Shown here: positions 1-34,461 of the stretch, in pieces
Numbering within the stretch: position 1 is the stretch's first letter
Layout of the letters: each line of letters opens with the position of its first letter
Virus genome (UHGV): UHGV-1142857
Length of the DNA: 34,461 nt
Reading direction: 5' to 3' (one strand)
DNA from: a virus
Translations under genes and position numbers: made by a program
The notes under the pieces: generated by a model
Told to the model about the DNA's origin: nothing
The model's input: only the letters and a program-made list of their open reading frames with translations
Database searches by the model: none

Positions 1-103
1 CTGCACCACTCGCCAAAGCTGCACACCTCACCAAAGCTGCACTCCTTGCCAAAGCGGCACACCTCACCAAAGCTGCACCTCTCGCCAAAGCTCTTGATCT
101 GCG
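1..103. repeat. 18-bp tandem repeat array (unit about caaagctgcacNNNNcNc), coding for the hexapeptide repeats of the junction protein
   Basis: Five or six consecutive 18-mers. Variation is confined to the x codon and synonymous ggc/ggt Gly codons. The same unit recurs at 34385..34461. Confidence 0.8.
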
Positions 104-185
104 TATAGTCGCCGCTGGGACAGATCAGCCACCCAAAATCGTCTCTCTCAAACCCTTCCAGGTCTTTTTCTGTATATACCTTCAT
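1..185 (-). CDS. N-terminal part of a Cys-rich hexapeptide-repeat protein (S/R-F-G-E/K-x-C)n; continues across the window junction into 34161..34461
   Basis: ATG at 185..183 preceded by AAGGGGAG. Minus-strand translation is MKVYTEKDLEGFERDDFGWLICPSGDYTQIK then SFGERC SFGEVC RFGKEC SFGEVC SFGEWC, running off position 1. Absent from the ORF track because it is truncated. Confidence 0.55.
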   Translation of the reverse strand, partial: MKVYTEKDLEGFERDDFGWLICPSGDYTQIKSFGERCSFGEVCRFGKECSFGEVCSFGEWC

Positions 186-323
186 CCTATCTCCCCTTCT
201 GCCGTTTCCTCTCTCGCAGATACGCCGTTCTTCTTCCCTGCACATACCCGGCAATCTCCTGGGCCTTTCTCTTCTTTTTCGCCCCCTGCTTGTCCAGGAT
301 CCGGGTTAGAAACGCCGACTTGC

Positions 324-617
324 TCAGTTTAGTCCGTCCCATAGCCCCAGCCTTTGCCCTTCCCGATACCGTTTTTTCATCTCTTCAATGTCGATGCCGG
401 CATACTGGTAAGCGGCCTTTGTGCTCACGTTGTATGGATACAATATGCCAATGCCTTCTTCTATTTGAATTTTGCGGATTTCTTTTTTGATTCGTGCCAT
501 GCTATATGAGGATTCCAATCCAAAAAGTTCCCTAAGCTGCACATTTCCGATTTCACTTGGATACTTATACCAGATTCGCAGTGCTGTCAGTGTGTCAATC
601 GGCTTGGCCATTTTCAA
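324..617 (-). CDS. early HTH-like DNA-binding protein of uncertain role (antirepressor or excisionase-like candidate)
   Basis: 97-aa ORF just downstream of the cro-like gene; TTG/ATG start with GAGGGTGA Shine-Dalgarno. Segment LTALRIWYKYPSEIGNVQLRELFGLESSYSMARIKKEI is helix-turn-helix like. Confidence 0.4.
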   Translation of the reverse strand: MKMAKPIDTLTALRIWYKYPSEIGNVQLRELFGLESSYSMARIKKEIRKIQIEEGIGILYPYNVSTKAAYQYAGIDIEEMKKRYREGQRLGLWDGLN

Positions 618-634
618 TTTGTTTCACCCTCTTC

Positions 635-856
635 CTATTGACTGTCCGACGCCTGTTTTCCCAGATCCGGGTCAAGGTCAATCACCGTGCATCCCAGCGC
701 CTCAGCGATTACTTTCAGTGTCGGATAAGGCATCACTTTTGTTCCCCGCTCGAGCTGGTAGATATATGAGCTTGTCGCCTCGATCCGCCTTGCCAGTTCT
801 GCGCCGGAAATTCCCATTTCTTCCCGTTTCTCCTTGATTCTTTCTCCTAGCGTCAT
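635..856 (-). CDS. cro: Cro/CI-type (XRE family) HTH transcriptional regulator, cro-like
   Basis: 73 aa, MTLGERIKEKREEMGISGAELARRIEATSSYIYQLERGTKVMPYPTLKVIAEALGCTVIDL is a canonical XRE HTH. Divergent from the CI-like gene across the operator region. Confidence 0.85.
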   Translation of the reverse strand: MTLGERIKEKREEMGISGAELARRIEATSSYIYQLERGTKVMPYPTLKVIAEALGCTVIDLDPDLGKQASDSQ

Positions 857-962
857 TTTTCCTTCTTCCCCTTTTTCGCCATTTTTGCTTGCTATTTCGT
901 GTTATGTAGGATATAATCCAAATAGGGCGGCGGGTTGTTATCCCGCAAACCCCATCTGGCGG

Positions 963-1052
963 TTAGCTCAGTGCCTTGATCGCTTTTTCAAGCGTTTCCT
1001 CGGCACAATCGTTGGCGTACCACACGCCGTCGATTCTTCGCAATGTATTCAT
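963..1052 (-). CDS. 29-aa micro-ORF at the 5' end of the lytic transcript (MNTLRRIDGVWYANDCAEETLEKAIKALS)
   Basis: ATG 7 nt after AGGAGGTT. Lies between the leftward promoter and cro. Followed by the hairpin GCGGG-ataacaa-CCCGC. Too short for the ORF track. Confidence 0.3.
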   Translation of the reverse strand: MNTLRRIDGVWYANDCAEETLEKAIKALS

Positions 1053-1122
1053 CGGCTAACCTCCTTTCTGCCACTCGCCCACCGAGTGGCTTTTTTTCAA
1101 GGTAATTGCTTACCTTGGTTAT

Positions 1123-1151
1123 AGTATATCTTAGGAAAATCCTAAAGTCAA
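1123..1151 (-). promoter_or_regulatory. leftward lytic promoter: TTGACT, 17-nt spacer, TATACT on the minus strand, with operator O1 occupying the spacer
   Basis: Reverse complement of 1146..1151 is TTGACT and of 1123..1128 is TATACT. The 17-nt spacer is the palindrome TTAGGAAAATCCTAA plus 2 nt. Confidence 0.6.
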
Positions 1152-1196
1152 TAAGTTTTTTAGGATTTTCCTAAATAATTTTTAGGATTTTAGGAG
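1131..1196. promoter_or_regulatory. operator cluster: 15-bp palindrome TTAGGA-AAA-TCCTAA at about 1131..1145 (O1), its inverse at about 1160..1174 (O2), a half-site at about 1182..1191 (O3) overlapping the CI-like RBS
   Basis: Direct reading of repeated palindromic sites between the divergent cro-like and CI-like genes. O1 to O2 centre spacing is about 29 bp. An extra palindrome GGTAA-ttgc-TTACC lies at about 1101..1114. Confidence 0.65.
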
Positions 1197-1204: not shown

Positions 1205-2164
1205 GTGGATATCGTTTTATCAAGAATATTAAAATTAAAATCTGAGAAGAAAATCTCAGATACCCAATTTACAAAAGATTTGCACTTTTATAGTTCGATT
1301 GTTTCCGAATGGAAAAATGGAAGTTCTAAATCTTATATGAGGCATCTACCCAAGATTGCCGATTACTTCGGCACAACGGTTGATGCAATTCTTAATGGAG
1401 AAACTAATAAACAAGAGACGTCCAGGAAAAAATCCATTACGACTATGGATACAGTAAGCCGAATTTGTGAATTGATGAATAAAAATAATATTAAAGATGC
1501 AGAGTTAGAGCGCTCCCTAGGTATTGGGAACAAAATCGTTTATGGGTGGAAAAAAGGTCGTTCAAAATCTTATATGGATTACCTTCCTCAGTTAGCAAAA
1601 ATTTTCCATGTGTCCGTTACCTATCTTTTGTGCTTAACTGATTACCCAAATGAACTTCCATCCACAATGGGAATCTTAAATGATCATATTTCAGAAGAAC
1701 CCAAATATCTTCGTGAGGAAACATTGGATCACCCACCTGGTCTTTCTTTCCAGACTTTTCCTCTTAGCGAGAGCACGGTGGCAATGATCCCCATCGTTTC
1801 CACGGTGCGCGCCGGCTGGAATGGTGTGCCGGAACCTGTCTATGATGGGATGATGGCGGTCTATGATCAGAAAAACCCCCAAGAATATGTCTGGATGAAG
1901 GTTGAGGGAGATAGTATGGAACCTTATATTATGGAGGGGGATTTTGTTCTGGTTCATATCCAGCCTACTGCCGAAAACGGGGAACTTGTCGTTGCCATGC
2001 TGGACGGCGAGGAAGGTACGGTTAAAAAATTTCAACGTAATAAAAGTGGCGTGATGTTGGTTCCTTATAATTCAAAATGCCCAACTGTCTTTGTGCCGAA
2101 TGACCGACTGGATGCTTTTTTAATCTATGGGGTTGTAAAAAAATCCATGAGAAATTATACATAA
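1205..2164 (+). CDS. CI-like phage repressor: tandem XRE-type HTH domains plus C-terminal S24 (LexA-like) peptidase domain
   Basis: GTG start 10 nt after TAGGAG. Two HTH-like blocks: ILKLKSEKKISDTQFTKDL...SIVSEWKNG and ICELMNKNNIKDAELERSLGIGNKIVYGWKKG. Ala-Gly cleavage-like site at RAGW. GDSM Ser nucleophile with Lys in TVKKF about 37 aa later. Confidence 0.85.
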   Translation: MDIVLSRILKLKSEKKISDTQFTKDLHFYSSIVSEWKNGSSKSYMRHLPKIADYFGTTVDAILNGETNKQETSRKKSITTMDTVSRICELMNKNNIKDAELERSLGIGNKIVYGWKKGRSKSYMDYLPQLAKIFHVSVTYLLCLTDYPNELPSTMGILNDHISEEPKYLREETLDHPPGLSFQTFPLSESTVAMIPIVSTVRAGWNGVPEPVYDGMMAVYDQKNPQEYVWMKVEGDSMEPYIMEGDFVLVHIQPTAENGELVVAMLDGEEGTVKKFQRNKSGVMLVPYNSKCPTVFVPNDRLDAFLIYGVVKKSMRNYT

Positions 2165-2328: not shown

Positions 2329-2904
2329 ATGAGTAAAAAAAAGAAAACCGTTGTTATTGTTGTTTCGATTATTCTGGTTTTAATTCTTGTTTATGTGATA
2401 TGTGCTCTTACTGGAAATTTGCAGCCTGCTGATGAAAATGATTCAAAGCCAGAAGCAACCACTTCTCCGTTACCGTCTGGAACGCTTGCATCGTATGGTT
2501 GGAACCCCGCTGATTCTAGTAATGAAATCGGAACAACTGCTCGAGCAGATGAAATTCAATTAAAAGGCATAAACGATGCAAAGAACATTACAAAAGATGA
2601 TGCTGCTATAGTTTGGGATCAGGGTATTCAATATTTAAAGGAGCATTCCAGCAATTTCTTTGAAAGTACAGAGATTATGGAACAATCTTTATATTATGGA
2701 AGTTTTATATGCAAATATATAGAAGAAAACGCAGCAGCCGACAACGCTTCACAGTTACCTGATTCGACCCGTGCGGCATATGACGGTGCGCAGCATTCTG
2801 TTCAAGCTATTAAGTATGTATATAGAGGTTCCCAGTCCATAGAAGATGAGGTAACTCAATTTGATCTAAAAGAAGCCCAGGAAAATCTGGCAAAATTCAA
2901 ATAG
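2329..2904 (+). CDS. membrane-anchored protein (N-terminal TM helix, extracytoplasmic domain); moron
   Basis: MSKKKKTVVIVVSIILVLILVYVICAL is a signal anchor. Markedly AT-rich compared with the rest of the window. Sits between repressor and integrase. Confidence 0.6.
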   Translation: MSKKKKTVVIVVSIILVLILVYVICALTGNLQPADENDSKPEATTSPLPSGTLASYGWNPADSSNEIGTTARADEIQLKGINDAKNITKDDAAIVWDQGIQYLKEHSSNFFESTEIMEQSLYYGSFICKYIEENAAADNASQLPDSTRAAYDGAQHSVQAIKYVYRGSQSIEDEVTQFDLKEAQENLAKFK

Positions 2905-2939
2905 CCTAGATTGTAATTATAATATAAGGGAGAATTTTT

Positions 2940-3578
2940 ATGGCCTTTTTGGATTTTTTTGCAAAAAAAGAACCGCAAAAAAAATATGGCGAAGTTAATG
3001 ATTTTTCTAATGGTGATTTTTGCTTAAAACTCATTTCAGAAAACTATGGGGTAGAAAATCCAGATCGGTATGAAATATTTGAGAAAGTACTTAACAAGTC
3101 AAAACAATATAGTGATCCGCTACATATTTTAGCTTGTGCATATGCCTGTCACTACTCTAAGGCTGAATTAAGAATGGATGCTATATCATATTTTGAAAAG
3201 TATTTAGAGAATCCAGTACCATGTAAAAATCCCCTATTCAATATTTCTCATGTGTATAGAGATTTAGGAAAAGATTATGAGGCAGAATATAATTTTAATT
3301 CTGCCGAAAAATGTTATAAAAACGCAATTTTGAAAAACGGGTATAGAAATCATGTTCATCCAATCAGCAAGCATCCCAGCTTATCTCCAGAGGAAGTTAT
3401 GCTAGGACGTCTCTATTTAAAAGTTAGTACACAAAAGGCTGTTGAATATTGGGAAAGTTTTACATGCCTCGATGTGTATAGAAGCGATGACCAATTCAGA
3501 AGACGAGTAGATATCGAGTATAAAAATGCTACTGAAAAGCATGCGAAAGGGTATGTTTATAAGCCGCGCAAAAAATAA
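2940..3578 (+). CDS. cytoplasmic TPR-like repeat protein; moron partner of 2329..2904
   Basis: 212 aa, AT-rich. TPR-like helical repeats: DPLHILACAYACHYSKAELRMDAISYFEKYLEN and NISHVYRDLGKDYEAEYNFNSAEKCYKNAILKN. No recognisable catalytic motif. Confidence 0.5.
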   Translation: MAFLDFFAKKEPQKKYGEVNDFSNGDFCLKLISENYGVENPDRYEIFEKVLNKSKQYSDPLHILACAYACHYSKAELRMDAISYFEKYLENPVPCKNPLFNISHVYRDLGKDYEAEYNFNSAEKCYKNAILKNGYRNHVHPISKHPSLSPEEVMLGRLYLKVSTQKAVEYWESFTCLDVYRSDDQFRRRVDIEYKNATEKHAKGYVYKPRKK

Positions 3579-3792: not shown

Positions 3793-4923
3793 ATGCCCTT
3801 CTATAAAATGAACGGAAAACGCGACGGGAAACAAAAATACCGGGTGCGCATCAACTATCTGGACAGCGCCGGAAAGCCGCACCAGATTGACCGCGTCACC
3901 TATGGTCTGGAAGAGGCAAAGCTCCTGGAGCTTCAGCTCGCAAAGGAAGTCAAGGATGAGGCGCCTGCAAAGCGCATGACCCTTCAACAGCTCTTTGATG
4001 AATATAGTAAGGCCCGGAAAGGCAGTGTGCGGGAATCCACGCTGGATAAGTCGCAGCGAATTTTGAAAGGCCACGTTTTGCCGGATCTTGGTGGAGTGCG
4101 GCTCCATAAGCTGACTACGCCGGTTCTCATGCAGTGGAAGATGGGCATGGAGCAGAAAGGCCTTGCCATAGTAACCCGTCAAAACGCCTATGCGGAATTT
4201 CACATTCTTTTAAATTATGCCTGCCGAATGGAATATTTGCCGAAAAATCCGCTGGATAAGGTTGGAAATTTCCGGGCTTCCGGCGAGATAAAGAAGGAGA
4301 TGCAGTATTACACGGCAGACGAGTTCAAAAAGTTCATTGCCGCCGCCCGTGAGAACGCGGAAAACGCGGATAGAAACGGCGTTTTAGGTGAATGGGATTA
4401 CTATGTATTCTTTGCCATTGCTTTCTATACAGGACTGCGAAAAGGCGAAATTCACGGTCTGGAATGGCGGGATATTGATGGGGCCTATTTGTCCGTCAAG
4501 CGGAGCATCGCCCAAAAGCTCAAGGGAGACGACCGGGAAACCGCGCCGAAAAACAAAAGCTCTATCCGGACACTGCAAATCCCCGTCCCCCTTCTGCGAA
4601 TTTTGGACGAGCACAAGGCAAGATGGAAAGCGGTTCCCGGATTTACAGAAACATATAAGGTATGCGGCGGCGTCCGTCCCCTGCGGGATACCACAATCCA
4701 GCTGCACAACAAAAAGTTTGCCGATATGGCTGGGGTCAAAAAAATCCGCATCCACGACTTCCGGCACTCTCACGCCTCCCTTCTGGCAAATGCAGGGATC
4801 AATATTCAGGAAGTAGCCCGCCGTCTCGGACATTCCCGGATCGAAATGACGTGGAACACCTATTCCCATCTCTATCCAAAAGAAGAGGAAAGGGCTATCA
4901 AAGTACTGGATGAAATCGTTTAA
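3793..4923 (+). CDS. int: tyrosine site-specific integrase
   Basis: 376 aa with an N-terminal arm-binding-like region. C-terminal catalytic signature R...HDFRHSHASLLANAGINIQEVARRLGHSRIEMTWNTYSHLY (R, HxxR, Y). RBS AAAGGAG. Confidence 0.92.
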   Translation: MPFYKMNGKRDGKQKYRVRINYLDSAGKPHQIDRVTYGLEEAKLLELQLAKEVKDEAPAKRMTLQQLFDEYSKARKGSVRESTLDKSQRILKGHVLPDLGGVRLHKLTTPVLMQWKMGMEQKGLAIVTRQNAYAEFHILLNYACRMEYLPKNPLDKVGNFRASGEIKKEMQYYTADEFKKFIAAARENAENADRNGVLGEWDYYVFFAIAFYTGLRKGEIHGLEWRDIDGAYLSVKRSIAQKLKGDDRETAPKNKSSIRTLQIPVPLLRILDEHKARWKAVPGFTETYKVCGGVRPLRDTTIQLHNKKFADMAGVKKIRIHDFRHSHASLLANAGINIQEVARRLGHSRIEMTWNTYSHLYPKEEERAIKVLDEIV

Positions 4924-4972
4924 AAAATGCTTTTTCGCAAATAAATCGTGTAAAAAACGTGTAAGGCAAAAC

Positions 4973-5001
4973 AAAAACCCGCTATTTAAGCGGGTTTTTT
5001 T
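4973..5001 (+). terminator. rho-independent terminator downstream of int (AACCCGC-tatttaa-GCGGGTT plus T7)
   Basis: 7-bp GC stem followed by TTTTTTT. Confidence 0.8.
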
Positions 5002-5183
5002 GGTGTTTGGTGGAGACAGCTGGTGTTATTTTTCATTAAATTTAATATTTGCAACAATTATATAAAGCTGAAAAAGCCGATTATAAACGGGTTTTTCTTA
5101 GTTTTCGTGTGATTACAATCAATCGAAAATATGCTAAATTTGCAAAAAACGTGTAAGAAACGTGTACAGAGCCAAACAAAAAA

Positions 5184-5330: not shown

Positions 5331-5358
5331 TAAAAAAGAGGGACTATGCGATCCCTCT
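5331..5358 (-). terminator. rho-independent terminator of the toxin-antitoxin operon (AGAGGGA-ctatgcga-TCCCTCT; minus strand reads stem then UUUUUUAUUU)
   Basis: The stem overlaps the toxin stop codon. A-run 5332..5337 on plus equals a U-run on the minus transcript. Confidence 0.75.
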
Positions 5359-5684
5359 CATTTTAGCCATTCTGTATCCATCATCATTTGGATTTTCATT
5401 ATATCATAGTTGTTCAGCCGCCCAATTTTCCTGATTAAATCTCTTGCTTCTAATCTAAAAATTTTAGACAGCCTGACTGTCGTTTCTTTCTCCAGCCCGG
5501 CCTCTTTCCAATATTTTATAGGATATTCACCCCATATTCCCGGCCTGGGACCCATTGTCGTTGCTGGTGCTACTGTCGCCACAACATGATCTCGCAGAAA
5601 CACTATCGGTCTTTCCTTTTTCGTATCATTTTCCTCGAATTTTACTGCGGCCCACCAGACCTCCCAGCATCGACTTTTCCCCAT
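5358..5684 (-). CDS. MazF/PemK-family toxin (endoribonuclease-like), translationally coupled to the upstream antitoxin
   Basis: 108 aa. CWEVWWAAVKFEENDTKKERPIVFLRD...VVATVAPATT...TTVRLSKIFRLEARDLIRKIGRLNNYDIMKIQ matches the PemK/MazF pattern (aromatic-rich N-terminus, ERPxLV, T-x-hydrophobic core, C-terminal IG.L...DM..I). ATG lies 0 nt after the antitoxin stop. Confidence 0.65.
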   Translation of the reverse strand: MGKSRCWEVWWAAVKFEENDTKKERPIVFLRDHVVATVAPATTMGPRPGIWGEYPIKYWKEAGLEKETTVRLSKIFRLEARDLIRKIGRLNNYDIMKIQMMMDTEWLK

Positions 5685-6224
5685 TTAATTAAACATATCC
5701 TCCGGCAACACCATACAACCGTCTTTATCTCTGCCAGGAAGAATCTCCTTTTTCGCGATCAATTCATCAAAGGACTGTAATTCACCCTCGCGGTGTGAAA
5801 AATACTCTTTCATTTCCTGCAAGTCTATTACGCTGTTATTTCCCTTTCGATACGCCCTATCCCATGGGCCGCCAGGAACATGCGTCATCGTAGATAAAGC
5901 AGGCGCCGTATACTTGCCGTATTTTCGCGCTACATCAAAAAGAAGGCTTTCCTCTTCATCAGTAAAAACATCCGGATTATAGCCGGGATCGACTTGGGTT
6001 ATTGTGTCTCTGCTATACCTGGCATACTTGCCTCTTGCCTTTTGCGGAACCGGACCATAGTCCCACGCCTGTATTTCATCATCAAACAGAGGGCGTCCCA
6101 GCTTAACTAAGCTCCATCCTTGCGCATAATATAGCATTTTATATAGCTTCATTTGTGTCATATTGTCATCAAATGCAGGTGACACTTCAATGAAAAAATT
6201 TGCCACATCAAACACACTGGCCAA
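5685..6224 (-). CDS. Panacea-domain (DUF4065, SocA/PanA-like) antitoxin
   Basis: Probable TTG start at 6224 after AAGGAGGGAG (the track's longer ORF starts at 6245). Hallmark motifs VFDVANFFIE and MKLYKMLYYAQGWSLVKLGRPLFDDEIQAWDYGPV. C-terminal extension of about 50 aa beyond the domain. Confidence 0.7.
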   Translation of the reverse strand: MASVFDVANFFIEVSPAFDDNMTQMKLYKMLYYAQGWSLVKLGRPLFDDEIQAWDYGPVPQKARGKYARYSRDTITQVDPGYNPDVFTDEEESLLFDVARKYGKYTAPALSTMTHVPGGPWDRAYRKGNNSVIDLQEMKEYFSHREGELQSFDELIAKKEILPGRDKDGCMVLPEDMFN

Positions 6225-6293
6225 TGTACTCCCTCCTTTTCTCATCTTAGTTTCACAAGGCTTTCAAATTTACCCCGGTTAATTCTTATCTAT

Positions 6294-6321
6294 AGTATAC
6301 CCCAAAAACACGTCTTTGCAA
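6294..6321 (-). promoter_or_regulatory. promoter of the antitoxin-toxin operon: TTGCAA, 16-nt spacer, TATACT on the minus strand
   Basis: Reverse complement of about 6316..6321 is TTGCAA and of about 6294..6299 is TATACT. About 60-nt leader to the TTG start. Confidence 0.5.
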
Positions 6322-6439
6322 TGATGTTTTTTTAACATTTATAATTCGTTTACATTCATTTGTATGCACTATTCGCCACTTTTGCGCAACATTCCTTCTT
6401 TTAAGTAGCTTTTTGCTCTATTTTTGTTTCTTTAAATGC

Positions 6440-6470
6440 AAAAAAGAGGGGCCTCATAGCCCCTCTTTTT
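6440..6470. terminator. bidirectional rho-independent terminator after the lysis cassette (AGAGGGGC-ctcata-GCCCCTCT with A-run and T-run flanks)
   Basis: 8-bp GC-rich stem. On the minus transcript the stop of 6470..6763 is followed by stem plus UUUUUUGCAUUU. Confidence 0.8.
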
Positions 6471-6763
6471 CAGATCAAATATGTGATGATATATGTGACG
6501 GCCCCACCGGCCAGGGCGGATAGAAGAATCTGCCATAGGGCGAAGCGCCGCCGGCTCTTTTCCCCCTCCATGGTGTCCAGGCGTTCATCTATACTGTTAA
6601 CCCGCACATTCATCAACTGTAAGGCTTCCGCCATCTCCTGTATGCTTTTTACCATCTTTTCAAAGTTCTTCTGCTGGGTAAAAAGCGTTTTCAGTTCTTC
6701 TTTGTGCGCCGCCAGAGCCGCCTCATGCTCCATCACCTTTGTCGTTAACTGATGTACATCCAT
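6470..6763 (-). CDS. XhlA-like (haemolysin XhlA family) lysis-associated protein: coiled coil plus C-terminal TM helix
   Basis: 97 aa with heptad-rich N-terminus and C-terminal WQILLSALAGGAVTYIITYLI. Sits immediately after the holin. Confidence 0.5.
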   Translation of the reverse strand: MDVHQLTTKVMEHEAALAAHKEELKTLFTQQKNFEKMVKSIQEMAEALQLMNVRVNSIDERLDTMEGEKSRRRFALWQILLSALAGGAVTYIITYLI

Positions 6764-6765
6764 GT

Positions 6766-7047
6766 CTACTCCTTCGGCTTTTCATAGGTCAATGCCTGTT
6801 CGCTGTCCCCCATGCCTTTGGTCGTCGGGTCGGTGAGCACGCCGATAAAGGACAGCACCGCCATCACCACCGTGCCGATAAGATAGGGGTTGCTGAAGAA
6901 GGCCGCAAACACCTCCCCTATGCTGCTCCAGGTGGTCAAATCCTCAAAGCCCAGCCCCAGATACGCCAGGATCGGCGACGCAATCACGCCCACTAGCCCG
7001 ATCCAAAACTGCGGGCTTTTTACCCGTACTTTCCAGTTGATTTTCAT
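6766..7047 (-). CDS. holin (phi LC3 / SPP1-type, Phage_holin_1-like)
   Basis: Start taken at MKINWKVRVKSPQFWIGLVGVIASPILAYLGLG, 13 nt after GGAGGAAAAACA (the track ORF extends 21 codons further). Two or three TM segments and a charged C-terminus. Confidence 0.75.
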   Translation of the reverse strand: MKINWKVRVKSPQFWIGLVGVIASPILAYLGLGFEDLTTWSSIGEVFAAFFSNPYLIGTVVMAVLSFIGVLTDPTTKGMGDSEQALTYEKPKE

Positions 7048-7069
7048 TGTTTTTCCTCCTTTTATCCTT

Positions 7070-8455: not shown

Positions 8456-8782
8456 TCACCCTCCCAGCGCGGAAATGACCAGCATATCCACCGTCTCCCG
8501 CAATATCTCCAGCTCGCTCCTGCCCGGGGCCGGGGCCGCCGGTTTCTCCGCCTCCGGAATCTCCTCCAGGGCCTCCCCCGTCCAGCGGTAGTTCGCCCGC
8601 CCGTATTCGTCCCGGATATCCTTTGCCAGATAGCGGCTCTGGGCATGGGCATATTTGTCCCCGTTTCCCTCGCCGATCAGCACCGCCCCTTCTCCCGGCT
8701 CCTCAAAGGCGTCCGAATAAATCCGCGTCACCTCTCCCGCCGGGTTTATCTGCGCATATACCTTCCATCCCTTTTCTTCCAT
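8456..8782 (-). CDS. XkdW-like small protein preceding XkdX
   Basis: Start taken at MEEKGWKVYAQINPAGEV after GGAGGT. Position between the fibre genes and the XkdX-like gene. Assignment is mainly by synteny. Confidence 0.35.
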   Translation of the reverse strand: MEEKGWKVYAQINPAGEVTRIYSDAFEEPGEGAVLIGEGNGDKYAHAQSRYLAKDIRDEYGRANYRWTGEALEEIPEAEKPAAPAPGRSELEILRETVDMLVISALGG

Positions 8783-8783
8783 A

Positions 8784-9716: not shown

Positions 9717-9733
9717 AGTACTCCTTTCCGGCC

Positions 9734-10240: not shown

Positions 10241-10249
10241 ATTTCCTCC

Positions 10250-10723: not shown

Positions 10724-10739
10724 CTCCAAAGCGACCTCC

Positions 10740-12248: not shown

Positions 12249-12348
12249 AACGGATATATCCGATGCCGTCTTGTTCCCCGTCTGCTCCGTGATGGAAAAG
12301 TCGGTTTGCGCATCATATTCAATTCCATTTATATATGCTTTGATAGGA

Positions 12349-20340: not shown

Positions 20341-20355
20341 AGTATCACCTCTTTC

Positions 20356-20559: not shown

Positions 20560-20586
20560 TGTCTCACCTCTTTCTAAAAATGGGAA

Positions 20587-20620: not shown

Positions 20621-20625
20621 ATGGG

Positions 20626-24018: not shown

Positions 24019-24031
24019 TTTTTCACCATCC

Positions 24032-25652: not shown

Positions 25653-25704
25653 AAAACCGCCTCCCTCCCTTCTTTCACATTGGATCGGTTTGGCAATCCG
25701 ATCT

Positions 25705-25920
25705 TCACCTGTATTCCTTCCCCGTCTGCATATCCATGAGGACGATCCGTTCCTCAATCTTGTATCCTGCCATCTTTGCCAGCCGGTGAACCATGCCGAT
25801 AAACTCCATGGCACGCTTGTCCCGGTATCCGCTCCGATCCGCCTTCTGTATCGCCTCAGCCGCCGTCTTGTCCATGCAGTGGCTCGTGTTGTATAGGTTC
25901 ATCCCGTCACCCTTTCCCAT
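25705..25920 (-). CDS. small conserved-looking protein, first gene of the late operon (start at 25920 or at MNLYN 25902)
   Basis: 71 aa, MDKTAAEAIQKADRSGYRDKRAMEFIGMVHRLAKMAGYKIEERIVLMDMQTGKEYR. The first ATG directly abuts the upstream terminator U-tract. Confidence 0.45.
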   Translation of the reverse strand: MGKGDGMNLYNTSHCMDKTAAEAIQKADRSGYRDKRAMEFIGMVHRLAKMAGYKIEERIVLMDMQTGKEYR

Positions 25921-28235: not shown

Positions 28236-28441
28236 TCATATCCCTCGCATAATGTTTCAATCGCCTTGTTTCTCCCTGCGTTGATATTTTTAATTGCTCG
28301 TATAACAGCATTTTTTTCCATAATTTCATCGAGCTCTTTTTCATGTTTTTCCATGATGATTTTTAGCATTAGTTCTACGACCTCAAGCTCTATCCCCTTC
28401 TCCATAACTTCCGCAAGTGTTGTATTCCAATCTATACCCAT
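28232..28441 (-). CDS. small helical hypothetical protein
   Basis: Start at MGIDWNTTLAEVMEKGIELEV after GGGAGGAAACGTG. TGATG overlap with the RusA-like stop. Confidence 0.4.
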   Translation of the reverse strand: MGIDWNTTLAEVMEKGIELEVVELMLKIIMEKHEKELDEIMEKNAVIRAIKNINAGRNKAIETLCEGYE

Positions 28442-28803
28442 CACGTTTCCTCCCTCACTCTTACCTTCACGCCCTCGCCCTGCCAAAAGCCCTGATATAT
28501 CCCTTTAACGTGCTTCCGGTCGTCGTCCTCGATCACCCAGCCCTTTAGGCCGTCTTCGATGAGCTTGGTCAAATACCCATGGTTGGAGCAGTCCAGACGC
28601 GAATTGTAGTAAAATTCCAGTATGACCGGGCCTTTCATGGGCTTCCTGGGGATTTTCTGCGCAAGCAGCTCCGCCCACACTTTCTCATGGATACGTGCCG
28701 CATCTGCATTTCTCTTTGCCCAGTGCTTCCCCGCATATACCGCGTTAAACCCATAGTCCTTCGCCGTCACCCGGATGGGCAGTATGATTTCCAGCATCCT
28801 CAT
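28441..28803 (-). CDS. rusA: RusA-like Holliday junction resolvase
   Basis: Start at MRMLEIILPIRVTAKDYGFNAVYAGKHWAKRNADAARIHEK... Fits the RusA pattern (HW..R, GPV.LE, R.D.DN...K...D.L, ..DD). ATGA overlap with the upstream gene. The track ORF is extended upstream. Confidence 0.6.
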   Translation of the reverse strand: MRMLEIILPIRVTAKDYGFNAVYAGKHWAKRNADAARIHEKVWAELLAQKIPRKPMKGPVILEFYYNSRLDCSNHGYLTKLIEDGLKGWVIEDDDRKHVKGIYQGFWQGEGVKVRVREET

Positions 28804-29168
28804 CCCTCCCGGAACAGCGGGCACTTTTTCACCCACAAGGTCTTGCCTCCTTCTACGATCATTTCCTCCGCCTCCCAGCCCGGCACCGGATCCCAGCGGA
28901 TGTCCCCGTTTTTCTTCAGCCCAACCCGCGGACATACATTTTCCGGGTTGGTGGCGTGATAACAGCTCCAGCATAGCTGCTCCCCCTGGCTTGTCTGCGG
29001 CTTGCGTACATACCGGATTCCCCGTTCCCGGGCCTGGGTCTGTATTGCCCAAACCGTCCGCCCAAGGATATATGCAATTTCACTGGCCGTGTGGGTCTTG
29101 CCCAGATTCGCAAGCCGCTCGACGTCCTTTTTCGTCCATGGTGCTCGGTGGTTTTCTGCTTTCTTCAT
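28800..29168 (-). CDS. DNA-binding protein with GcrA-like N-terminal HTH (WTKKDVERL...TASEIAYILGRT) and Cys-rich C-terminus
   Basis: 122 aa; RBS GGGGTGGA. Confidence 0.4.
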   Translation of the reverse strand: MKKAENHRAPWTKKDVERLANLGKTHTASEIAYILGRTVWAIQTQARERGIRYVRKPQTSQGEQLCWSCYHATNPENVCPRVGLKKNGDIRWDPVPGWEAEEMIVEGGKTLWVKKCPLFREG

Positions 29169-29177
29169 CGTCCACCC

Positions 29178-29564
29178 CTAGAACGGCAGGTCATCATCCG
29201 GCATGTACCCGTCGTCCGGCGCAAACATGCCGTCTTTTACTTCCCTGCTTTCCGCCCCCTTGGGCCTGGCCAGAAATTCCACATCCTCCGCCTGAATCTC
29301 GGTCACATAGCGCCGGGAACCGTCCTTTGCGTCATAGCTCCGGGTTCGAAGCTCGCCGCAAACCGCCGCCTGTTGTCCCTTCACGAGATATTTGGCGCAG
29401 TTATCCGCCAGTCCCCGCCATGCCACGACATTCAGAAAATCGCTTTCCTCTTTATTCGTCCGCCGCATCACCGCAACGGTGAACGTTGCCACCGAAATGC
29501 CGCCCGGCGTGGTTTTCAGCTCCGGCGCTTTGGTCAGCCGCCCGATAATAAATACTTTGTTCAT
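29178..29564 (-). CDS. ssb: single-stranded DNA-binding protein
   Basis: Start at MNKVFIIGRLTKAPELKTTPGGISVATFTVAV after GGAGGGAGAAGC. OB-fold pattern and acidic tail DDDLPF. ATGA overlap with the DnaC-like stop. Confidence 0.88.
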   Translation of the reverse strand: MNKVFIIGRLTKAPELKTTPGGISVATFTVAVMRRTNKEESDFLNVVAWRGLADNCAKYLVKGQQAAVCGELRTRSYDAKDGSRRYVTEIQAEDVEFLARPKGAESREVKDGMFAPDDGYMPDDDLPF

Positions 29565-30418
29565 GCTTCTCCCTCCAAAAGTCTTTTGATCGCTTCCCTG
29601 CGTTCCTTCGCCGCCTGCATGCGCAGGCTTTTCCCTGGGAACTCCACGGGATGGCACACCCCTAATATCCGATCATAGATCCGCCGGTATGCCAGCCCCG
29701 CCTCTTTAAAATCCTTCTGCGCAAGATTCGTCGTGATGATTAACGGCCTGCCGCTCTTAATACGCGTGTCCATCACCTCGAACACCTTTTCCTGCCCAAA
29801 GCTGCTCTCCCGCTCCACGCCCATGTCGTCAATCACCACCAGTTCCGCCTCTTCGATGTCTTTTAAAACCTCGCTCTGGTCGCCAAAATTGGACTGGATG
29901 CTGCTCAACAGCTTGGGCAGGCTGGTCGCCAGCACGAAAATCCCCTTGTCGATGAGAGCGTTGGCGATGCAGTAGGCCGCATAACTCTTTCCAGCTCCTA
30001 CGCCTCCGTAAAGCAGCAAGCCGATATTTTCGCTTCGCACTTTCGCCCATTGCTCCACATACCGCTGGCAAATCCGCATCTGCTCCGGGTTGTATCCCCG
30101 GTCGTTTGCAAACGTCCATGTCTGGCAGACCGTGTCGCCAATCCCCTGCCGCCGCAGTTCCCGGATGCGTCGCTGCACCTCCATCCGCCGTAGTTCTTCC
30201 TGTTCCTTCTCATGGGCTTTGCGCTTGCATGTACAGGCGACGCGAACCTTGCACATCTTTCCGCCCGGAAACGGGATGACTGCTTCTTTTGGCGTTCCGC
30301 AGCGCCCGCAGATGAGAAGGCCATTTTCATTCAAATAATCGTCGGGCTGTTCCGGGTTCGCCTCTCGGCTCTTTTGGATCATCGCGTCAAGTACCGCGTC
30401 AATCGTACCAGTCTCCAT
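29561..30418 (-). CDS. DnaC/IstB-like helicase loader ATPase with N-terminal zinc-binding region
   Basis: Start at METGTIDAV after AGGAGGAG. Walker A GGVGAGKS, Walker B VVIDDMG. N-terminal CGRCG...CTC. Confidence 0.82.
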   Translation of the reverse strand: METGTIDAVLDAMIQKSREANPEQPDDYLNENGLLICGRCGTPKEAVIPFPGGKMCKVRVACTCKRKAHEKEQEELRRMEVQRRIRELRRQGIGDTVCQTWTFANDRGYNPEQMRICQRYVEQWAKVRSENIGLLLYGGVGAGKSYAAYCIANALIDKGIFVLATSLPKLLSSIQSNFGDQSEVLKDIEEAELVVIDDMGVERESSFGQEKVFEVMDTRIKSGRPLIITTNLAQKDFKEAGLAYRRIYDRILGVCHPVEFPGKSLRMQAAKERREAIKRLLEGEA

Positions 30419-31124
30419 CGTACTTCTGCTCCTCCTTGTTTGCGTATTTCCCCTCCAGCACTTTGGCCATATTGGCGTCCCGCACCAGCCAGTCAAAGTC
30501 TGCCCGCCAGTTTCGGTCGTTCCCGCCGTTCAGAAACCGGCTCTCCCCCGCCAGCCGGAACAGCTTCTCAAAATCCTCCAGGGCATACCCCGAGGAATAC
30601 CTTGCCCTGACCGCTCTTTCCCTGGCGTCCGATATCTTCATACAGCGGTTCATTTTCGGGCAGAGATCGTTATACAGGTTTACGATTTTCTGATAAGGGA
30701 TCCCAGGCGCGCGCGCTTCTTCTGCTTCTTCTCTGTTTTCGTTTATGTTTATGTCTTTGTTTATGTTTATTAATGTTCCGGCAACTCGTCCGGAACTCGT
30801 CCGGCTACTTGTCCGGAACTCGTCCGGCAACTCGTCCAGAATATGACATATAGAAAGCATTTTAAACATTCCTGCCTGCCGGGGTTTCCCAGGAATATAT
30901 TCAATGAGACCCCGCTGTTTGAGCTTGTTTTTCGCGTCTGCAAGACTGGATCGGGAAAGACCTGTTATCTGCTGTAAAATCAGATTGCTCGCCGTAAACT
31001 CGGTTTTCCACATAGTGCTGTTGTTTATGTGCATCAAGGCATGCCATAACGCAATCTCACTTGTGGACAGTCGGTTTGCCAGCAAATAATCGTGAAAAGC
31101 ATTCAGTTCCGCTATATAGTTCAT
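30399..31124 (-). CDS. DnaD-like replication initiator / replisome organiser with internal origin repeats
   Basis: 241 aa. N-terminal winged-HTH replisome-organiser-like domain (LSTSEIALWHALMHINN...LQQITGLSRSSLADAKNKLKQRGLIEY). C-terminal DnaD-like domain (..FEKLFRLAG..). Linker encoded by iterons. Confidence 0.75.
   Translation of the reverse strand: MNYIAELNAFHDYLLANRLSTSEIALWHALMHINNSTMWKTEFTASNLILQQITGLSRSSLADAKNKLKQRGLIEYIPGKPRQAGMFKMLSICHILDELPDEFRTSSRTSSGRVAGTLININKDININENREEAEEARAPGIPYQKIVNLYNDLCPKMNRCMKISDARERAVRARYSSGYALEDFEKLFRLAGESRFLNGGNDRNWRADFDWLVRDANMAKVLEGKYANKEEQKYDGDWYD
30734..30838. repeat. putative replication origin inside the initiator gene: AT-rich (gtttatgt)x4 tract followed by about 2.5 copies of a 23-bp iteron (CCGGcAACTCGTCCGGAACTCGT)
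   Basis: Direct reading. Repeats fall in the inter-domain linker (LDELPDEFRTSSRTSSGRVAG...ININKDININ). Confidence 0.6.
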
Positions 31125-31143
31125 CTCTCTGCTTCCCTCTCTG

Positions 31144-31479
31144 TCATGCCCGGTTCCATTCCCGGTCGATCTGCTCTCGGAGGAGGTTCACCTCCAGCTT
31201 ATACACGTTAATCGCCTCCATTGACGCCTTGTATACCACCTCGGCGATATCCCTCTGCATACAAAGTTCGGCAATATCCGGACGTCCCCGGCAAATATCT
31301 GAAAGAATGGTTACCGGCGTTCCCTTTTCCCGCTCCTCCAGCATGGCCTTTCTAAGGGCGATTCGGTATTCCTTGTGGCTCATGGAATATGCCCTGCCGC
31401 GCTTTCCGCACATCTCCAGCGCCTTGTCCAAAAGCATCGTCTTTTCCTGCATCTCTTCAAAAAGTTCCTGCCCGCTCAT
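31144..31479 (-). CDS. hypothetical replication-module protein
   Basis: Start at MSGQELFEEMQEK after GGAAGGAA. ATGA overlap with the upstream gene. Confidence 0.4.
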   Translation of the reverse strand: MSGQELFEEMQEKTMLLDKALEMCGKRGRAYSMSHKEYRIALRKAMLEEREKGTPVTILSDICRGRPDIAELCMQRDIAEVVYKASMEAINVYKLEVNLLREQIDREWNRA

Positions 31480-31736
31480 AAATAATTCCTTCCAAAGGTT
31501 TCCACAAATTCGCCGCGCGTCCATCCTGCATCCTCAAGTTTTCGCTGATACCGCTCATGGAGCCGCCGGGCGAAGCACGCGTCCGAATGAACGCCATTCT
31601 TGCCAGTGTGTGCCTGCCTTGGCAGATAGATCACGCAATTATATTTCTCGCTCCATTTCCGATTCGGTCCCCCAAATACATGATGCAGTTCACAAGCATA
31701 TTCCGGACGTTCCGGCCGATTCAGAGGTTTTCTCAT
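31476..31736 (-). CDS. small HNH-like / His-Me-finger-like protein
   Basis: Start at MRKPLNRPERPEYACELHHVFGGPNRKWSEKYNCVIYLPRQAHTGKNGVH after GGAGAAG. HH...N...N...H spacing. ATGA overlap. Confidence 0.35.
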   Translation of the reverse strand: MRKPLNRPERPEYACELHHVFGGPNRKWSEKYNCVIYLPRQAHTGKNGVHSDACFARRLHERYQRKLEDAGWTRGEFVETFGRNYL

Positions 31737-32362
31737 TGCTTCTCCTGGCCCGTTTGCTTTTCCTGTTTTGCATATTCCTTCTTTCCGCAGCTCATGCACA
31801 TCGTCTTTCCAAACGTCTTTTGGCTGCTCGCCGCGATCTGCTCCGCCGTATGTCCGCCCATTGCCAAAATTCGTTTTCCGCATACCTCGCAGAAGGGCTC
31901 GCTGCCGGGCATGGAGGTGTCGGGTTCCCTCCGGGATGCGGCCCCCGGGCGGCCCGCCGGCTTTTCTTCCTCCGGCAGGTCCTCCCCGGCATAGATGTAA
32001 AGCCCCAGCCCATGCCGCGCAATCGCCTTTGTCAAACTCCGCTGAATGGCCTTGTTCACGTCAAAGCTGGTGACGCTTTCCAGGGGAATGCTCCGGTTGC
32101 GGTGATCCATCACCGGCAGATATTCAATGCACTCCTGCCCGCCGATGGTTACCCCAGTCTTGACCCAGCAGGTCCGCCCGTCCGTGTGGTAGCACCACCC
32201 CTCCCGGTTTTCATAGATGGTATATGCCGCCTCCGGATACCGCTTTTTTACCTCGCCCCAGGCCCATGCCCAGGAGAGATATGTCAGCCCGTTTTTCTTC
32301 TCGGTTTTGTCGTTGACGTTGATGGCGCTCAACGCAGCGAATACGTTCTTTTCCTCTTCCAT
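31733..32362 (-). CDS. Rad52-like single-strand annealing protein (Sak / DUF1071-type) with C-terminal C4 zinc ribbon
   Basis: 209 aa. GLTYLSWAWAWGEVKKRYPEAAYTIYEN...DVNKAIQRSLTKAIARHGLGLYIYAGEDLP matches the Sak-family core. CEVCG...CMSCG at the C-terminus. Confidence 0.45.
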   Translation of the reverse strand: MEEEKNVFAALSAINVNDKTEKKNGLTYLSWAWAWGEVKKRYPEAAYTIYENREGWCYHTDGRTCWVKTGVTIGGQECIEYLPVMDHRNRSIPLESVTSFDVNKAIQRSLTKAIARHGLGLYIYAGEDLPEEEKPAGRPGAASRREPDTSMPGSEPFCEVCGKRILAMGGHTAEQIAASSQKTFGKTMCMSCGKKEYAKQEKQTGQEKQ

Positions 32363-32567: not shown

Positions 32568-32696
32568 GGTCTTTTTCCTTTCTTCAGCATCTTCCGCAGA
32601 AGCCGGGTCGCCTCTTCCGACGCGCTCATGGCGCCGTCCGGATCGTCCTCCGGTTCCCGCTCATACCCCCACTTTTCGCAGTTCACGATGTAGGGC

Positions 32697-32870
32697 GGAT
32701 CCCCTTCATGCGTCATGGCTGTCCTCATATTTCCGGACTTCCTCTTTCAATTCCTTATATTTTTCCTCCCATTCTTTCGCATCGCCTCGGGCCAGCCGTA
32801 GACTGATTTCCAAATCACGAATGCGCGCGCCCAGCGTGAAAAAAACCGTGGTTAAATCTCTATCTTCCAT
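32697..32870 (-). CDS. 57-aa coiled-coil small ORF
   Basis: ATG after AGGAGAGAAGGAA. Overlaps the stop of 32860..33141. Not in the track. Confidence 0.25.
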
Positions 32871-33141
32871 TTCCTTCTCTCCTCTCTACTGTCCTCCATA
32901 CCGTCACCGACCTCCCGGTCGTACCGTCAATCCGTATCCCGCAGGGTTCCACCCGCCCTGCCTTTTTAAGCTCGGTCAGCCGCGGAGCCGCAGCGTTGCG
33001 CTCATGAAACCCCAATTTCTCGGCAATCTCCCGCGCCGTCATCTCGCGGCCATCCAGCACCGCCAAAATCTCTCTCTTGCGCGTCTCCCTGTCCATCGCT
33101 TCATAGCTTTCCCGCCGTGTCTGCCGGGGAATGTCCACCAT
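32860..33141 (-). CDS. winged-helix DNA-binding protein (MarR/ArsR-like small regulator)
   Basis: 93 aa; REILAVLDGREMTAREIAEKLGFHERNAAAPRLTELKKAGRVE is wHTH-like. Confidence 0.55.
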   Translation of the reverse strand: MVDIPRQTRRESYEAMDRETRKREILAVLDGREMTAREIAEKLGFHERNAAAPRLTELKKAGRVEPCGIRIDGTTGRSVTVWRTVERREGNGR

Positions 33142-33233
33142 TTCTATTCCCTCCCTCTCTTGTATTGTTTTCGTCGGTGTGATATACTGTATTTGTAGTT
33201 TGTAGGGATTGGGCCGCGTCAGCGGCTCTTTCT

Positions 33234-33482
33234 CTATTCTTTCTCTGTTGCCGGGTCAAGGCGTATAAGGTATGTCTTTCCGTTCCGCTGGCGGGCTCTA
33301 ACCGCATTTTTTAAGCCCATTTTTTTTATGACCTCCTGGAGATTAGACGATAAGCTCTTTGACCCGTTTCCCTCTACAAGCGCACATCTGAGCTGAGAGT
33401 CCATGAACTCCCGCACAATATTCATGTTTTTTTGAGTCTTGTATTTTCTATCAGGTATGTTTTCGACTGGTATAAGCTTCAC
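33234..33482 (-). CDS. hypothetical early protein
   Basis: GTG start (MKLIPVENIP) 7 nt after AAGGAGGAG; the track ORF begins 6 codons earlier. Confidence 0.4.
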   Translation of the reverse strand: MKLIPVENIPDRKYKTQKNMNIVREFMDSQLRCALVEGNGSKSLSSNLQEVIKKMGLKNAVRARQRNGKTYLIRLDPATEKE

Positions 33483-33496
33483 TTTCCGCTCCTCCT

Positions 33497-33610
33497 TCAC
33501 TTCAATATTTTCATCAGCTTTTCCATGATCCGCTCCGGCAGCTTGTCCGCCAGAAGTGCGATTCCAAAAACGACTGCCGCCGCTGCGGTGATTCCGATGG
33601 CTAACTGCAT
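33497..33610 (-). CDS. 37-aa single-TM peptide (MQLAIGITAAAAVVFGIALLADKLPERIMEKLMKILK)
   Basis: ATG after GGAGGAAGAAAG, inside a 23-nt block duplicated at 34161..34183. Equals the C-terminal 37 codons of track ORF 33497..33817, whose upstream part is an alternate frame of the repeat region. Confidence 0.4.
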   Translation of the reverse strand: MQLAIGITAAAAVVFGIALLADKLPERIMEKLMKILK

Positions 33611-34164
33611 CTTTCTTCCTCCATGAGCATGCCTTTCAAGTACTCTGCCTGCCGCTCTCGTGCGACATACCGTGTGGCAGCCAATGCGGCATACCATGCG
33701 GCAGCCCGTGCAGTATCCCTTGCGGCAGCCCGTGCGGTAGTCAATGTGGCATACCATGCGGATGACTCTGCGGCATCCCATATGGCAGCCTCTGCGGCGT
33801 CCCGTGCGGCAGTCCATGCGGCAGCCCGTGCAGCAGATAGTTCCACATCACTCGCCTCTCCTCGAAGCCATGCCCGTTTGACTTTGATTGCGTTCCAGCT
33901 GCGTTCATCTGCATTCTCAACGTGGTTTAGAGCATCTTCCGCACACCAGCATGCAAACTCGTGCAAAGTCCGGACGTTGATCAATTCTTCCCGCAGCACC
34001 GCCCATAGCTTATTTTCTGCGTCCACATCATCCAGGGCCAGAATGTCCAGTGCCGTCCACCGCTCCTTTCGTGCTCCGATCTCTTTCAGCCGCGCCGCTC
34101 CTTCCTCTGTTTTCAGCCAGCACGGCTTAAATTTCAAAAATTCTTCATAGGTGATACTGTTCAT
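33601..34164 (-). CDS. early protein with globular N-terminal domain and Ala/Arg/Trp-rich tandem-repeat C-terminus
   Basis: Start at MNSITYEEFLKF after GGAGGAAGAAAG (the track ORF starts 13 codons earlier). C-terminal repeats SAARAAAWTAARDAAEAAIWDAAESSAWYATLTTARAAARDTARAAAWYAALAATRY are encoded by 12/24-bp periodic DNA at 33640..33840. Confidence 0.5.
   Translation of the reverse strand: MNSITYEEFLKFKPCWLKTEEGAARLKEIGARKERWTALDILALDDVDAENKLWAVLREELINVRTLHEFACWCAEDALNHVENADERSWNAIKVKRAWLRGEASDVELSAARAAAWTAARDAAEAAIWDAAESSAWYATLTTARAAARDTARAAAWYAALAATRYVARERQAEYLKGMLMEEERCS
33640..33840. repeat. 12/24-bp periodic GC-rich coding repeats (tgcggcagcccgtgc-like)
   Basis: Direct reading. They encode the Ala-rich repeats of 33601..34164. 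Confidence 0.7.
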
Positions 34165-34461
34165 CTTTCTTCCTCCATGAGCATCAGCTCCGCAAGATCG
34201 CATGCGGCAAGATACTCCTTTTCATGACGGGTTCCTTCATGCACATCCCGTACCCGTTCTTTGAAAGCGGAAAGATCGCTGAACCAGCAACCCGCGCGGA
34301 CAAAGATGTTTCCGTCCCTATCCGCGAAAAAGTATGTCTTTCGTTTCTCGCTTCCGATACGGTCGACGGCAACATATCTGCCGCCAGATACGCGTCCCCT
34401 TTCAAAGCTGCACTCCTCACCAAAGCTGCATCGCTCGCCAAAGCTGCACCACTCGCCAAAG
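34161..34461 (-). CDS. C-terminal part of the hexapeptide-repeat junction protein (continuation of 185..1)
   Basis: Frame entering at 34460 reads FGEWC SFGERC SFGEEC SFERGRVSGGRYVAVDRIGSEKRKTYFFADRDGNIFVRAGCWFSDLSAFKERVRDVHEGTRHEKEYLAACDLAELMLMEEER and stops at 34163..34161 in an ATGA overlap with the next gene. Differs from the track frame 34184..34459. Confidence 0.5.
   Translation of the reverse strand, partial: FGEWCSFGERCSFGEECSFERGRVSGGRYVAVDRIGSEKRKTYFFADRDGNIFVRAGCWFSDLSAFKERVRDVHEGTRHEKEYLAACDLAELMLMEEER
34385..34461. repeat. 18-bp tandem repeat array, same family as 1..103; the last 18 nt are identical to positions 1..18
   Basis: Units caaagctgcactcctcac, caaagctgcatcgctcgc, caaagctgcaccactcgc, caaag. 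Confidence 0.8.

Follow-up and report, generated by a model that had tools for sequence, protein, structure and literature searches.

The virus genome UHGV-1142857 was analysed as one stretch of 34,461 nt, here called the window, whose first and last 18 nt are identical. We conclude, with a probability of roughly 80%, that the window is the complete, circularly closing genome of a temperate siphovirus in its excised form, broken within a variable-copy array that lies inside an early gene. The 18-nt terminal match is one unit of a variable-copy coding repeat, not an assembler or circularisation overlap, and it neither proves closure nor fixes the genome length. A first-pass annotation of the window had proposed a complete circular phage genome rather than a slice of chromosome, and this part of its proposal stands, since the map closes and the gene that spans the junction is found intact elsewhere; its further claim, that the 18-nt overlap sets the circle at 34,443 bp, does not.

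Closure through a gene split between the two ends

When the ends of the window were compared with each other, positions 1..18 and 34444..34461 were found to match exactly (CTGCACCACTCGCCAAAG), as the first-pass annotation had stated, and 18 nt was the only length at which prefix and suffix coincide. On either strand of the whole window, this 18-mer is present at the two ends only. Tandem Repeats Finder placed both ends within a tandem array with an 18-nt period, covering 1..92 (5.1 copies) and 34403..34461 (3.3 copies), a position that had not been mentioned previously, and the terminal match is exactly one period long. Read unit by unit, the array is a series of minus-strand xFGxxC hexapeptides, with the units U Y1 Y2 Y3 Y4 on the start side (1..90) and X2 X1 U on the end side (34408..34461), where U, encoding SFGEWC, is the terminal 18-mer and the six other units directly beside it are 72-83% identical to it. 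Among arrays of the same gene family, 296 of 5761 within-array unit pairs (5.1%) are identical in DNA sequence, and the chance level of the terminal identity is therefore about 1 in 20 rather than 4^-18. Since the period is a multiple of three, every in-register join of the ends keeps the reading frame.

Terminal repeats that truly stem from an assembler have a length of 20 bp or more, equal to the assembler k, and fall at random positions (CheckV paper, PMC8116208). Like the metagenomic contigs with direct terminal repeats described there, the window has identical ends and one full set of phage modules, and it closes to the circular map expected for a circular or concatemer-replicating phage. 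Each module was found exactly once, in agreement with the first-pass annotation, in Pfam and PHROG scans of about 55 open reading frames, all but a few small ones, and the length is in line with that of related contigs, 33.3-35.6 kb. In contrast to those contigs, the only terminal match in the window is shorter than 20 bp, it has the length of the array period and not that of a usual assembler k, both copies lie inside the array instead of at an arbitrary break, and the copy number of the repeat varies. Because it is one period of such an array, the terminal repeat cannot safely be trimmed.

The evidence for closure comes from the gene that the ends divide. A single minus-strand gene, with its ATG at 185..183 and its stop at 34163..34161 as annotated before, is split between the two ends into complementary halves, and the halves, when joined, give one continuous open reading frame of 155 aa. 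The N-terminal half (1..185), delimited from the reading frame and by comparison with homologues, consists of MKVYTEKDLEGFERDDFGWLICPSGDYTQIK and repeats; the C-terminal half (34161..34461) carries repeats and a conserved alpha/beta domain (phrog_20532). Downstream lies a gene for a 187-aa protein (33601..34164, minus strand) with its own Ala/Trp-rich 12-nt coding repeat, and upstream, on the same strand, are genes for 51-aa and 97-aa proteins (187..617), as in all spanning contigs. An exact lookup of the 187-aa protein returned 24 contigs. Five of these, L001-L004 and L008, carry an undivided junction gene, in the order Cro (73 aa), 97 aa, 51 aa, junction gene, 187 aa. Three IMG/VR contigs of 16.8-34.6 kb (L075, L076 and L078) run continuously through lysis genes, a toxin module in some, the integrase gene (int), CI in some, Cro, junction gene and replication genes. 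The junction gene is thus intact, with the same neighbors, in eight independent contigs, and for this reason closure of the map is well supported. No further long direct repeat is present in the window, so the window holds at most one genome length, and a concatemer longer than one genome was rejected on the same ground.

Several further features of the 187-aa gene were noted. Its repeat (33659..33837) has periods of 12, 24 and 60 nt, encodes Ala/Trp-rich AAxxAAWxAA motifs, and is about 70% identical at the DNA level to hypothetical genes of Burkholderia, Clavibacter and Mycobacterium phages. The products of this gene and of the junction gene finish with the same residues, ...MLMEEER, and the two genes share about 24 nt of DNA, CATCTTTCTTCCTCCATGAGCAT (~34161..34185 and ~33598..33622), that holds the stop codon, a ribosome-binding site and the ATG of the next gene. 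The region with CATCTTTCTTCCTCCATGAGCAT is 99.6% shared between phages with differing neighbor modules, and it may be a module-boundary sequence that favors recombination.

Repeat copy number, genome length and assembly breaks

To place the window ends on the spanning contigs, blastn was used. On L003 (ERZ27253741 k141_153479) the ends overlap by exactly 18 nt, on L001 (ERZ27253771) and L008 they abut, on L002 and L004 they are separated by 72 nt, and on L014 (JAHZDE010000019.1, 'Clostridiales bacterium'), a contig from a metagenome-assembled genome, they are 234 nt apart. When the arrays were read unit by unit at the DNA level, L003 carried a 7-unit allele, X2 X1 U Y1 Y2 Y3 Y4; in the 8-unit allele of L001 and L008, U is duplicated, and the 12-unit allele of L002 and L004 has a second copy of the block U U Y1 Y2. 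All three alleles are made from one set of units, and a diverged relative has about 21. The window, ending in X2 X1 U and starting with U Y1 Y2 Y3 Y4, fits each of the three. Among near-identical phages, U is single, duplicated, or included in a duplicated 72-nt block.

In a 14,262-nt alignment of L001 with L003, two contigs that a single study obtained from separate samples, there is no mismatch, and the sole gap is one 18-nt unit; the array therefore changes faster than point substitutions build up, and it is the fastest-changing site of the genome. L002 differs by the 72-nt block and 9 substitutions, and in L001 the array is found at 9381..10001. The candidate joins of the window give 34,443 bp with 7 units (18-nt overlap), 34,461 bp with 8 units (end to end), or 34,533 bp with 12 units (72 nt added). 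Genome length is thus 34,443 + 18n, with n=0, 1 and 5 documented in near-identical arrays and n probably at least 1 here.

Breaks in other assemblies of the same strain bear on this estimate. In Logan assemblies built at k=31, one contig that is 100% identical to the window (L005, 26,707 bp) ends 2 nt past position 34461, and three others, also 100% identical (L011, 22,996 bp; L012; L013), begin at window position 26. We simulated de Bruijn unitigs for the window carrying the 7-, 8- or 12-unit allele. The 7-unit array contained no repeated k-mer at any k of 25 or more and did not break. At k=31, the 8- and 12-unit arrays both ended the body unitig at U+2, and the 12-unit array restarted at position 26, both positions matching the observed contig ends exactly. 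Because of this match, the strain in those samples is taken to carry either a mixture of alleles or at least 8 units, three of the samples having 12. The first-pass annotation had regarded more than one extra unit between the ends as evidence against its reading; the k=31 break pattern does fit alleles of 8 and 12 units, and closure itself is upheld.

The chance that a random cut would fall within a 126-216-nt array of a 34-kb genome is about 0.4-0.6%, and we infer that the window ends result from a repeat-induced break. An 8- or 12-unit form, or a mixture, is favored because the window ends in the array on both sides and the identical k=31 contigs break there as well. The assembly closes on itself, and its break falls in an early gene with an in-frame, variable 18-nt repeat. 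Breaks at this place extend to other phages, since 12 of the 54 IMG/VR contigs with a relative of the junction gene end inside or next to its array (L079, L093, L097, L100, L107-L109, L112, L118, L125, L126 and L128). Several of these, 35-41 kb long, may be complete genomes broken at the same place.

It is possible, though we consider it unlikely, that the earlier estimate is exact, the 18 nt being a true redundant overlap in a genome that carries only the 7-unit allele and measures 34,443 bp. L003 has precisely such a junction, with 7 units and ends overlapping by 18 nt, and the joined 155-aa protein is 100% identical to P0002. Nevertheless, a clean 7-unit array lacks repeated k-mers at k of 25 or more, so that no assembly break would be expected in it, and a random cut would hit 126 nt of a 34-kb circle in only about 0.4% of cases. 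The overlap equals the repeat period, is not a usual assembler k, and is under the 20-bp rule (PMC8116208); identical units occur within single arrays at the 5% base rate given above, and the k=31 contigs that match the window at 100% break as 8- and 12-unit alleles predict. With 7-, 8- and 12-unit alleles all in existence, 34,443 bp is one of several possible circle sizes, and it is probably wrong for the populations of this strain.

Attachment site and the excised state

The phage attachment site, attP (4943..5166), adjoins a gene for a tyrosine integrase (3793..4923, plus strand; Phage_integrase and SAM-like domains in Pfam). The core of this site, TGGTGGAGACAGCTGG (5008..5023), lies between paired arm-type repeats, (A)AACGTGTA, located at 4943..4963 and at 5146..5166. 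Immediately after int come the first arm-type repeats, AAATCGTGTAAAAAACGTGTA (4943..4963), a terminator hairpin, and the core, which would be the complement of a tRNA/tmRNA 3' end; past the core are AT-rich phage DNA, the second arm-repeat pair, and then toxin and lysis genes. The integrase has 61 relatives in reference genomes. The closest, with 96% identity, is encoded on L014, and the next, with 64-70% identity, are in Christensenella genomes, including a complete chromosome (L015). In integrated relatives, whose integrases are 52-70% identical to that of the window, an opposite-strand tmRNA or tRNA gene lies about 60-100 nt after int (tmRNA in L015, L018, L024, L056 and L059, and tRNA in the others). 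The window core sits exactly where L015 has the tmRNA 3' end (TGGTGGAG...). The window shares the layout of arm repeats, hairpin and TGGTGGAG with these integrated relatives, but it runs on into phage DNA, and because attP is intact, we regard the window as the excised form. The captured molecule would be either the circular replicative form or circularly permuted virion DNA.

The gene predicted to serve as integration target, a tmRNA or tRNA gene, would end ...CCAGCTGTCTCCACCA. The 17-mer core occurs once in IMG/VR, within a jumbo-phage tRNA cluster (L129), where it is followed by AATCGAACC; this match is uninformative about the host, and the presence of the same 17-mer in a tRNA-like context of an unrelated contig supports the tRNA/tmRNA-like nature of the core. 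The window resembles those lambdoid-type temperate siphoviruses of Firmicutes whose tyrosine integrases target the 3' ends of tRNA or tmRNA (ssrA) genes, in its divergent CI(S24)/Cro switch with three operator-like palindromes, in having int followed by arm-type repeats, a hairpin and a tRNA/tmRNA-like core, and in having relatives that adjoin tmRNA or tRNA genes. It differs from them in that no DNA-level relative is found among 50,697 deposited phages, attB was not found, and the core differs from those of phages whose integrases are 90-96% identical.

This last difference was seen in two contigs. The window has the core TGGTGGAGACAGCTGG (5008..5023), whereas L014 (~7785..7803) and L001 (reverse strand, ~6105..6123, just downstream of int at 6201..7331) have TGGTGGAGGCGAGGGGAGT, with integrases that are 90-96% identical, which suggests, as judged from sequence, that the target allele or the host may have been switched with little change of the integrase. 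In several prophages (L030, L031, L036, L039 and L041), a homologue of the window's 97-aa protein (324..617, minus strand) is encoded directly before the integrase gene and in its orientation. A position immediately upstream of the integrase is usual for an excisionase or directionality factor. The 97-aa early protein had no Pfam or PHROG match. Several genomes (contigs L065-L072) carry only the last 40-50 codons of the window's integrase family, at 60-86% identity, and these tails may be remnants beside attachment sites or truncations at contig ends.

Some observations weigh against a complete, excised genome broken in its array. No contig of the exact strain, defined by its 319-aa CI and Sak-type replication module, spans the junction, and each of the five contigs with the identical CI terminates inside the array. 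Scans of IMG/VR and of JGI metagenomes for exact sequence patterns did not recover the source contig. In the simulation, no one value of k accounts for both window ends: for the 8-unit allele, the start fits k=25 and the end k=29. The 7-unit allele occurs in nature (L003), so that joining the ends with an 18-nt overlap could be correct here. A host attB was not found, as the predicted 3' arm of the host tmRNA or tRNA, TGGTGGAGACAGCTGGNNTYGAANCCAGC, was absent from a JGI metagenome scan, and no integrated close relative with attL and attR was seen, all close contigs being of the excised form.

The lack of a spanning contig for the exact strain is the one point in favor of reading the window as a slice of bacterial chromosome with an integrated prophage, or as a chimeric or linear molecule whose ends fall in related repeats by chance. 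Such a reading is highly improbable and is already contradicted, since host genes are absent from the window, phage DNA continues on either side of an uninterrupted attP, the ends are complementary halves of a gene that is intact elsewhere, and two independent contigs (23 kb and 27 kb, with their overlap inferred from lengths) are 100% identical to the window and both end in the array. The first-pass annotation had also allowed for a plasmid prophage, in which the circle would be the form maintained in lysogeny, as in Clostridioides difficile phages like phiCD38-2. The nearest cultured TerL, about 51% identical, does belong to the phiCD38-2 group, whose members are reportedly kept as extrachromosomal plasmids despite encoding integrases (PMC10778935); all close contigs, including the L014 contig binned into a metagenome-assembled genome, are non-integrated, and a toxin-antitoxin-like pair is present. 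With the phiCD38-2/phiCD111/phiCD146 group, the window shares a PBSX-family TerL, siphovirus morphogenesis genes, the 35-41 kb class of genome size and a Clostridia host. However, the similarity is at the protein level and confined to packaging genes, and those phages are reported as plasmid prophages with parA, whereas the scans of about 55 window proteins detected no parA and the window has an ssrA-type attP. Nor did the Pfam and PHROG scans detect ParA/ParB, a protelomerase or a plasmid replication protein, and arm repeats on either side of a tRNA/tmRNA-like core make up a well-formed attP. Chromosomes, among them the complete Christensenella chromosome, carry integrated relatives of the integrase next to tmRNA or tRNA genes. 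Taken with the absence of a partition gene from the scans, the tyrosine integrase, the tRNA/tmRNA-type attP and the integrated relatives make a plasmid prophage improbable, and an integrating phage appears the more likely of the two from the sequence features at hand.

The junction protein family and the gene content

The junction gene is located in the early operon, directly after cro. Its 155-aa product matches more than 1,100 cluster representatives at E<=1e-5, none with a function, and their lengths step by 6 aa. Members have a 31-aa N-terminus, MKxYTxxDxxxFExDxxGxxICPxGDYTxIK, followed by 2 to about 29 hexapeptides and a C-terminal domain of about 75 aa, and both terminal domains are conserved across the more than 1,100 homologues. 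Within the hexapeptide, position 2 is F in 98% of cases, position 3 is G in 93%, position 4 is E in 67%, and position 6 is C in 100%. Written as F-G-x-x-C-x, the repeat fits the left-handed beta-helix hexapeptide motif [LIV]-G-x-x-[STAV]-x. Precomputed Hexapep (PF00132) matches exist for some of the longer homologues, and a profile of the family gives a weak match to the beta-helix portion of eIF2B-epsilon (E=0.0015); the window's own 155-aa protein does not reach the Pfam threshold for Hexapep. Its only Pfam matches, all sub-threshold, are to zf-CCCH_2 (22.9 bits; cut-off 25.8) and zf-CCCH_DUS3L (17.6; cut-off 30). Zinc-finger repeats were rejected, because zf-CCCH_2 is below threshold, histidines are lacking, and a hexapeptide beta-helix fits better.

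An AlphaFold2 model of the protein had a mean predicted local distance difference test score (pLDDT) of 50.8, with repeats below 50 and only the C-terminal domain moderately confident. In Foldseek searches, this low-confidence model matched viral beta-solenoid, hexapeptide and pentapeptide-repeat proteins (E 1e-4 to 1e-6; root-mean-square deviation 2-2.5 A over about 70 columns), and no match was found in the PDB. From the repeat pattern and the model, the junction protein is probably a beta-solenoid whose length is set by repeat number. Its closest known counterparts are the PF00132 Hexapep left-handed beta-helices, whose hexapeptide pattern it fits, and other beta-solenoid proteins, such as pentapeptide repeats and bactofilin. 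Unlike Hexapep proteins, the junction protein has a cysteine at every sixth residue, lacks a transferase domain, and has family-specific short N- and C-terminal domains, and within its family the number of copies spans 2 to about 29 and differs even among near-identical phages.

The switch region (1123..1195) includes the site near 1123..1151 where the first-pass annotation had placed the lytic promoter; a promoter-like TTGACT-17-TATACT is indeed present there, on the minus strand (1151..1123), and is overlapped by three copies of the palindrome TTAGGAAAATCCTAA, which would be operator-like. On its two sides are the genes for a Cro-like helix-turn-helix protein (635..856, minus strand; Pfam and PHROG) and a CI-type repressor with helix-turn-helix and Peptidase_S24 domains (1205..2164, plus strand; Pfam), and together with the tyrosine integrase, this CI/Cro switch identifies a temperate phage. 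The plus strand carries only CI, two genes of unknown function and int, and all non-lysogeny genes have one orientation, as had been described. Between the early promoter and cro is a small open reading frame (~962..1051, minus strand) for 29 aa, MNTLRRIDGVWYANDCAEETLEKAIKALS, with a strong ribosome-binding site, at the position of which a 37-aa gene is called in L001-L003; a terminator-like hairpin lies nearby on the opposite strand (1070..1090). The interval between CI and int (2329..3578, plus strand) has a GC content of 0.37-0.38, against about 0.50 elsewhere, and contains the two function-unknown genes, for 191-aa and 212-aa proteins without Pfam or PADLOC matches, the former with a hydrophobic N-terminus. 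They are probably cargo expressed in lysogeny. PADLOC detected no defence system among the cargo genes.

On the minus strand, a PemK-like toxin and a SocA/Panacea-domain protein (cargo) are encoded at 5358..6245 (Pfam); this PemK/MazF-like toxin and SocA/Panacea pair, between attP and the lysis genes, is 100% identical in IMG/VR contig L075, and other genes take its place in L001 and L014. From Pfam and PHROG matches, the remaining minus-strand genes form a lysis module (6470..8326; hemolysin-like protein, holin and endolysin), a tail module (8456..16197; fibres, distal tail proteins, tape measure at 12349..14664 and major tail protein at 15727..16197), a head and packaging module (16200..25814), and a replication and recombination module (28441..32362; RusA, SSB, DnaC-like loader, DnaD-like initiator and Sak annealing protein). 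The head and packaging module encodes adaptors, the major head protein (17729..18919), a scaffold, a minor capsid protein (20774..22345), an SPP1-type portal (22345..24018), TerL (24032..25318) and TerS, the start of which is uncertain. TerL shares 51-53% identity with terminases that carry a PBSX-family annotation, and with the matches to PF05133 SPP1_portal and PF06152 minor capsid protein 2, this set of genes would suit packaging by a headful (pac) mode of the SPP1/PBSX type. ARAGORN and Rfam detected no tRNA, tmRNA or other RNA family in the window. The search of deposited phages at the DNA level covered the junction region and 25 kb of the window, and its sole match, unrelated and of low identity, was at the Ala/Trp repeat of the 187-aa gene. 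The host is probably an uncultured, Christensenellales-like member of the gut Clostridia.

In genome catalogues, the window can be listed as a complete temperate phage genome, with an uncertainty, in steps of 18 nt, in its total length and in the sequence of one gene. Trimming a short terminal identity as if it were a circularisation overlap is not advisable when it lies inside a tandem repeat. One variable repeat is a recurrent break point for a group of gut phages, as seen in the 12 of 54 IMG/VR relatives and in all k=31 contigs of the strain. This genome brings in an uncultured phage lineage that probably infects Christensenellales and has a tRNA/tmRNA-type attP, and the hypervariable repeat protein of its early operon may merit experimental study. 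More speculatively, and in our view with rather low likelihood, the junction gene defines an uncharacterised, very large family of early phage proteins, each a cysteine-laddered solenoid tuned by slippage and acting as a length-tunable factor in host takeover or anti-defence. In gut Clostridia phages, across the more than 1,100 representatives, slippage may resize the xFGxxC solenoid faster than point mutations accumulate, and the solenoid could, for instance, serve as a rod-like decoy or mimic, with diversifying selection acting on its length. If this is true, the repeat of the junction family would systematically break short-read assemblies of these phages at one fixed point.

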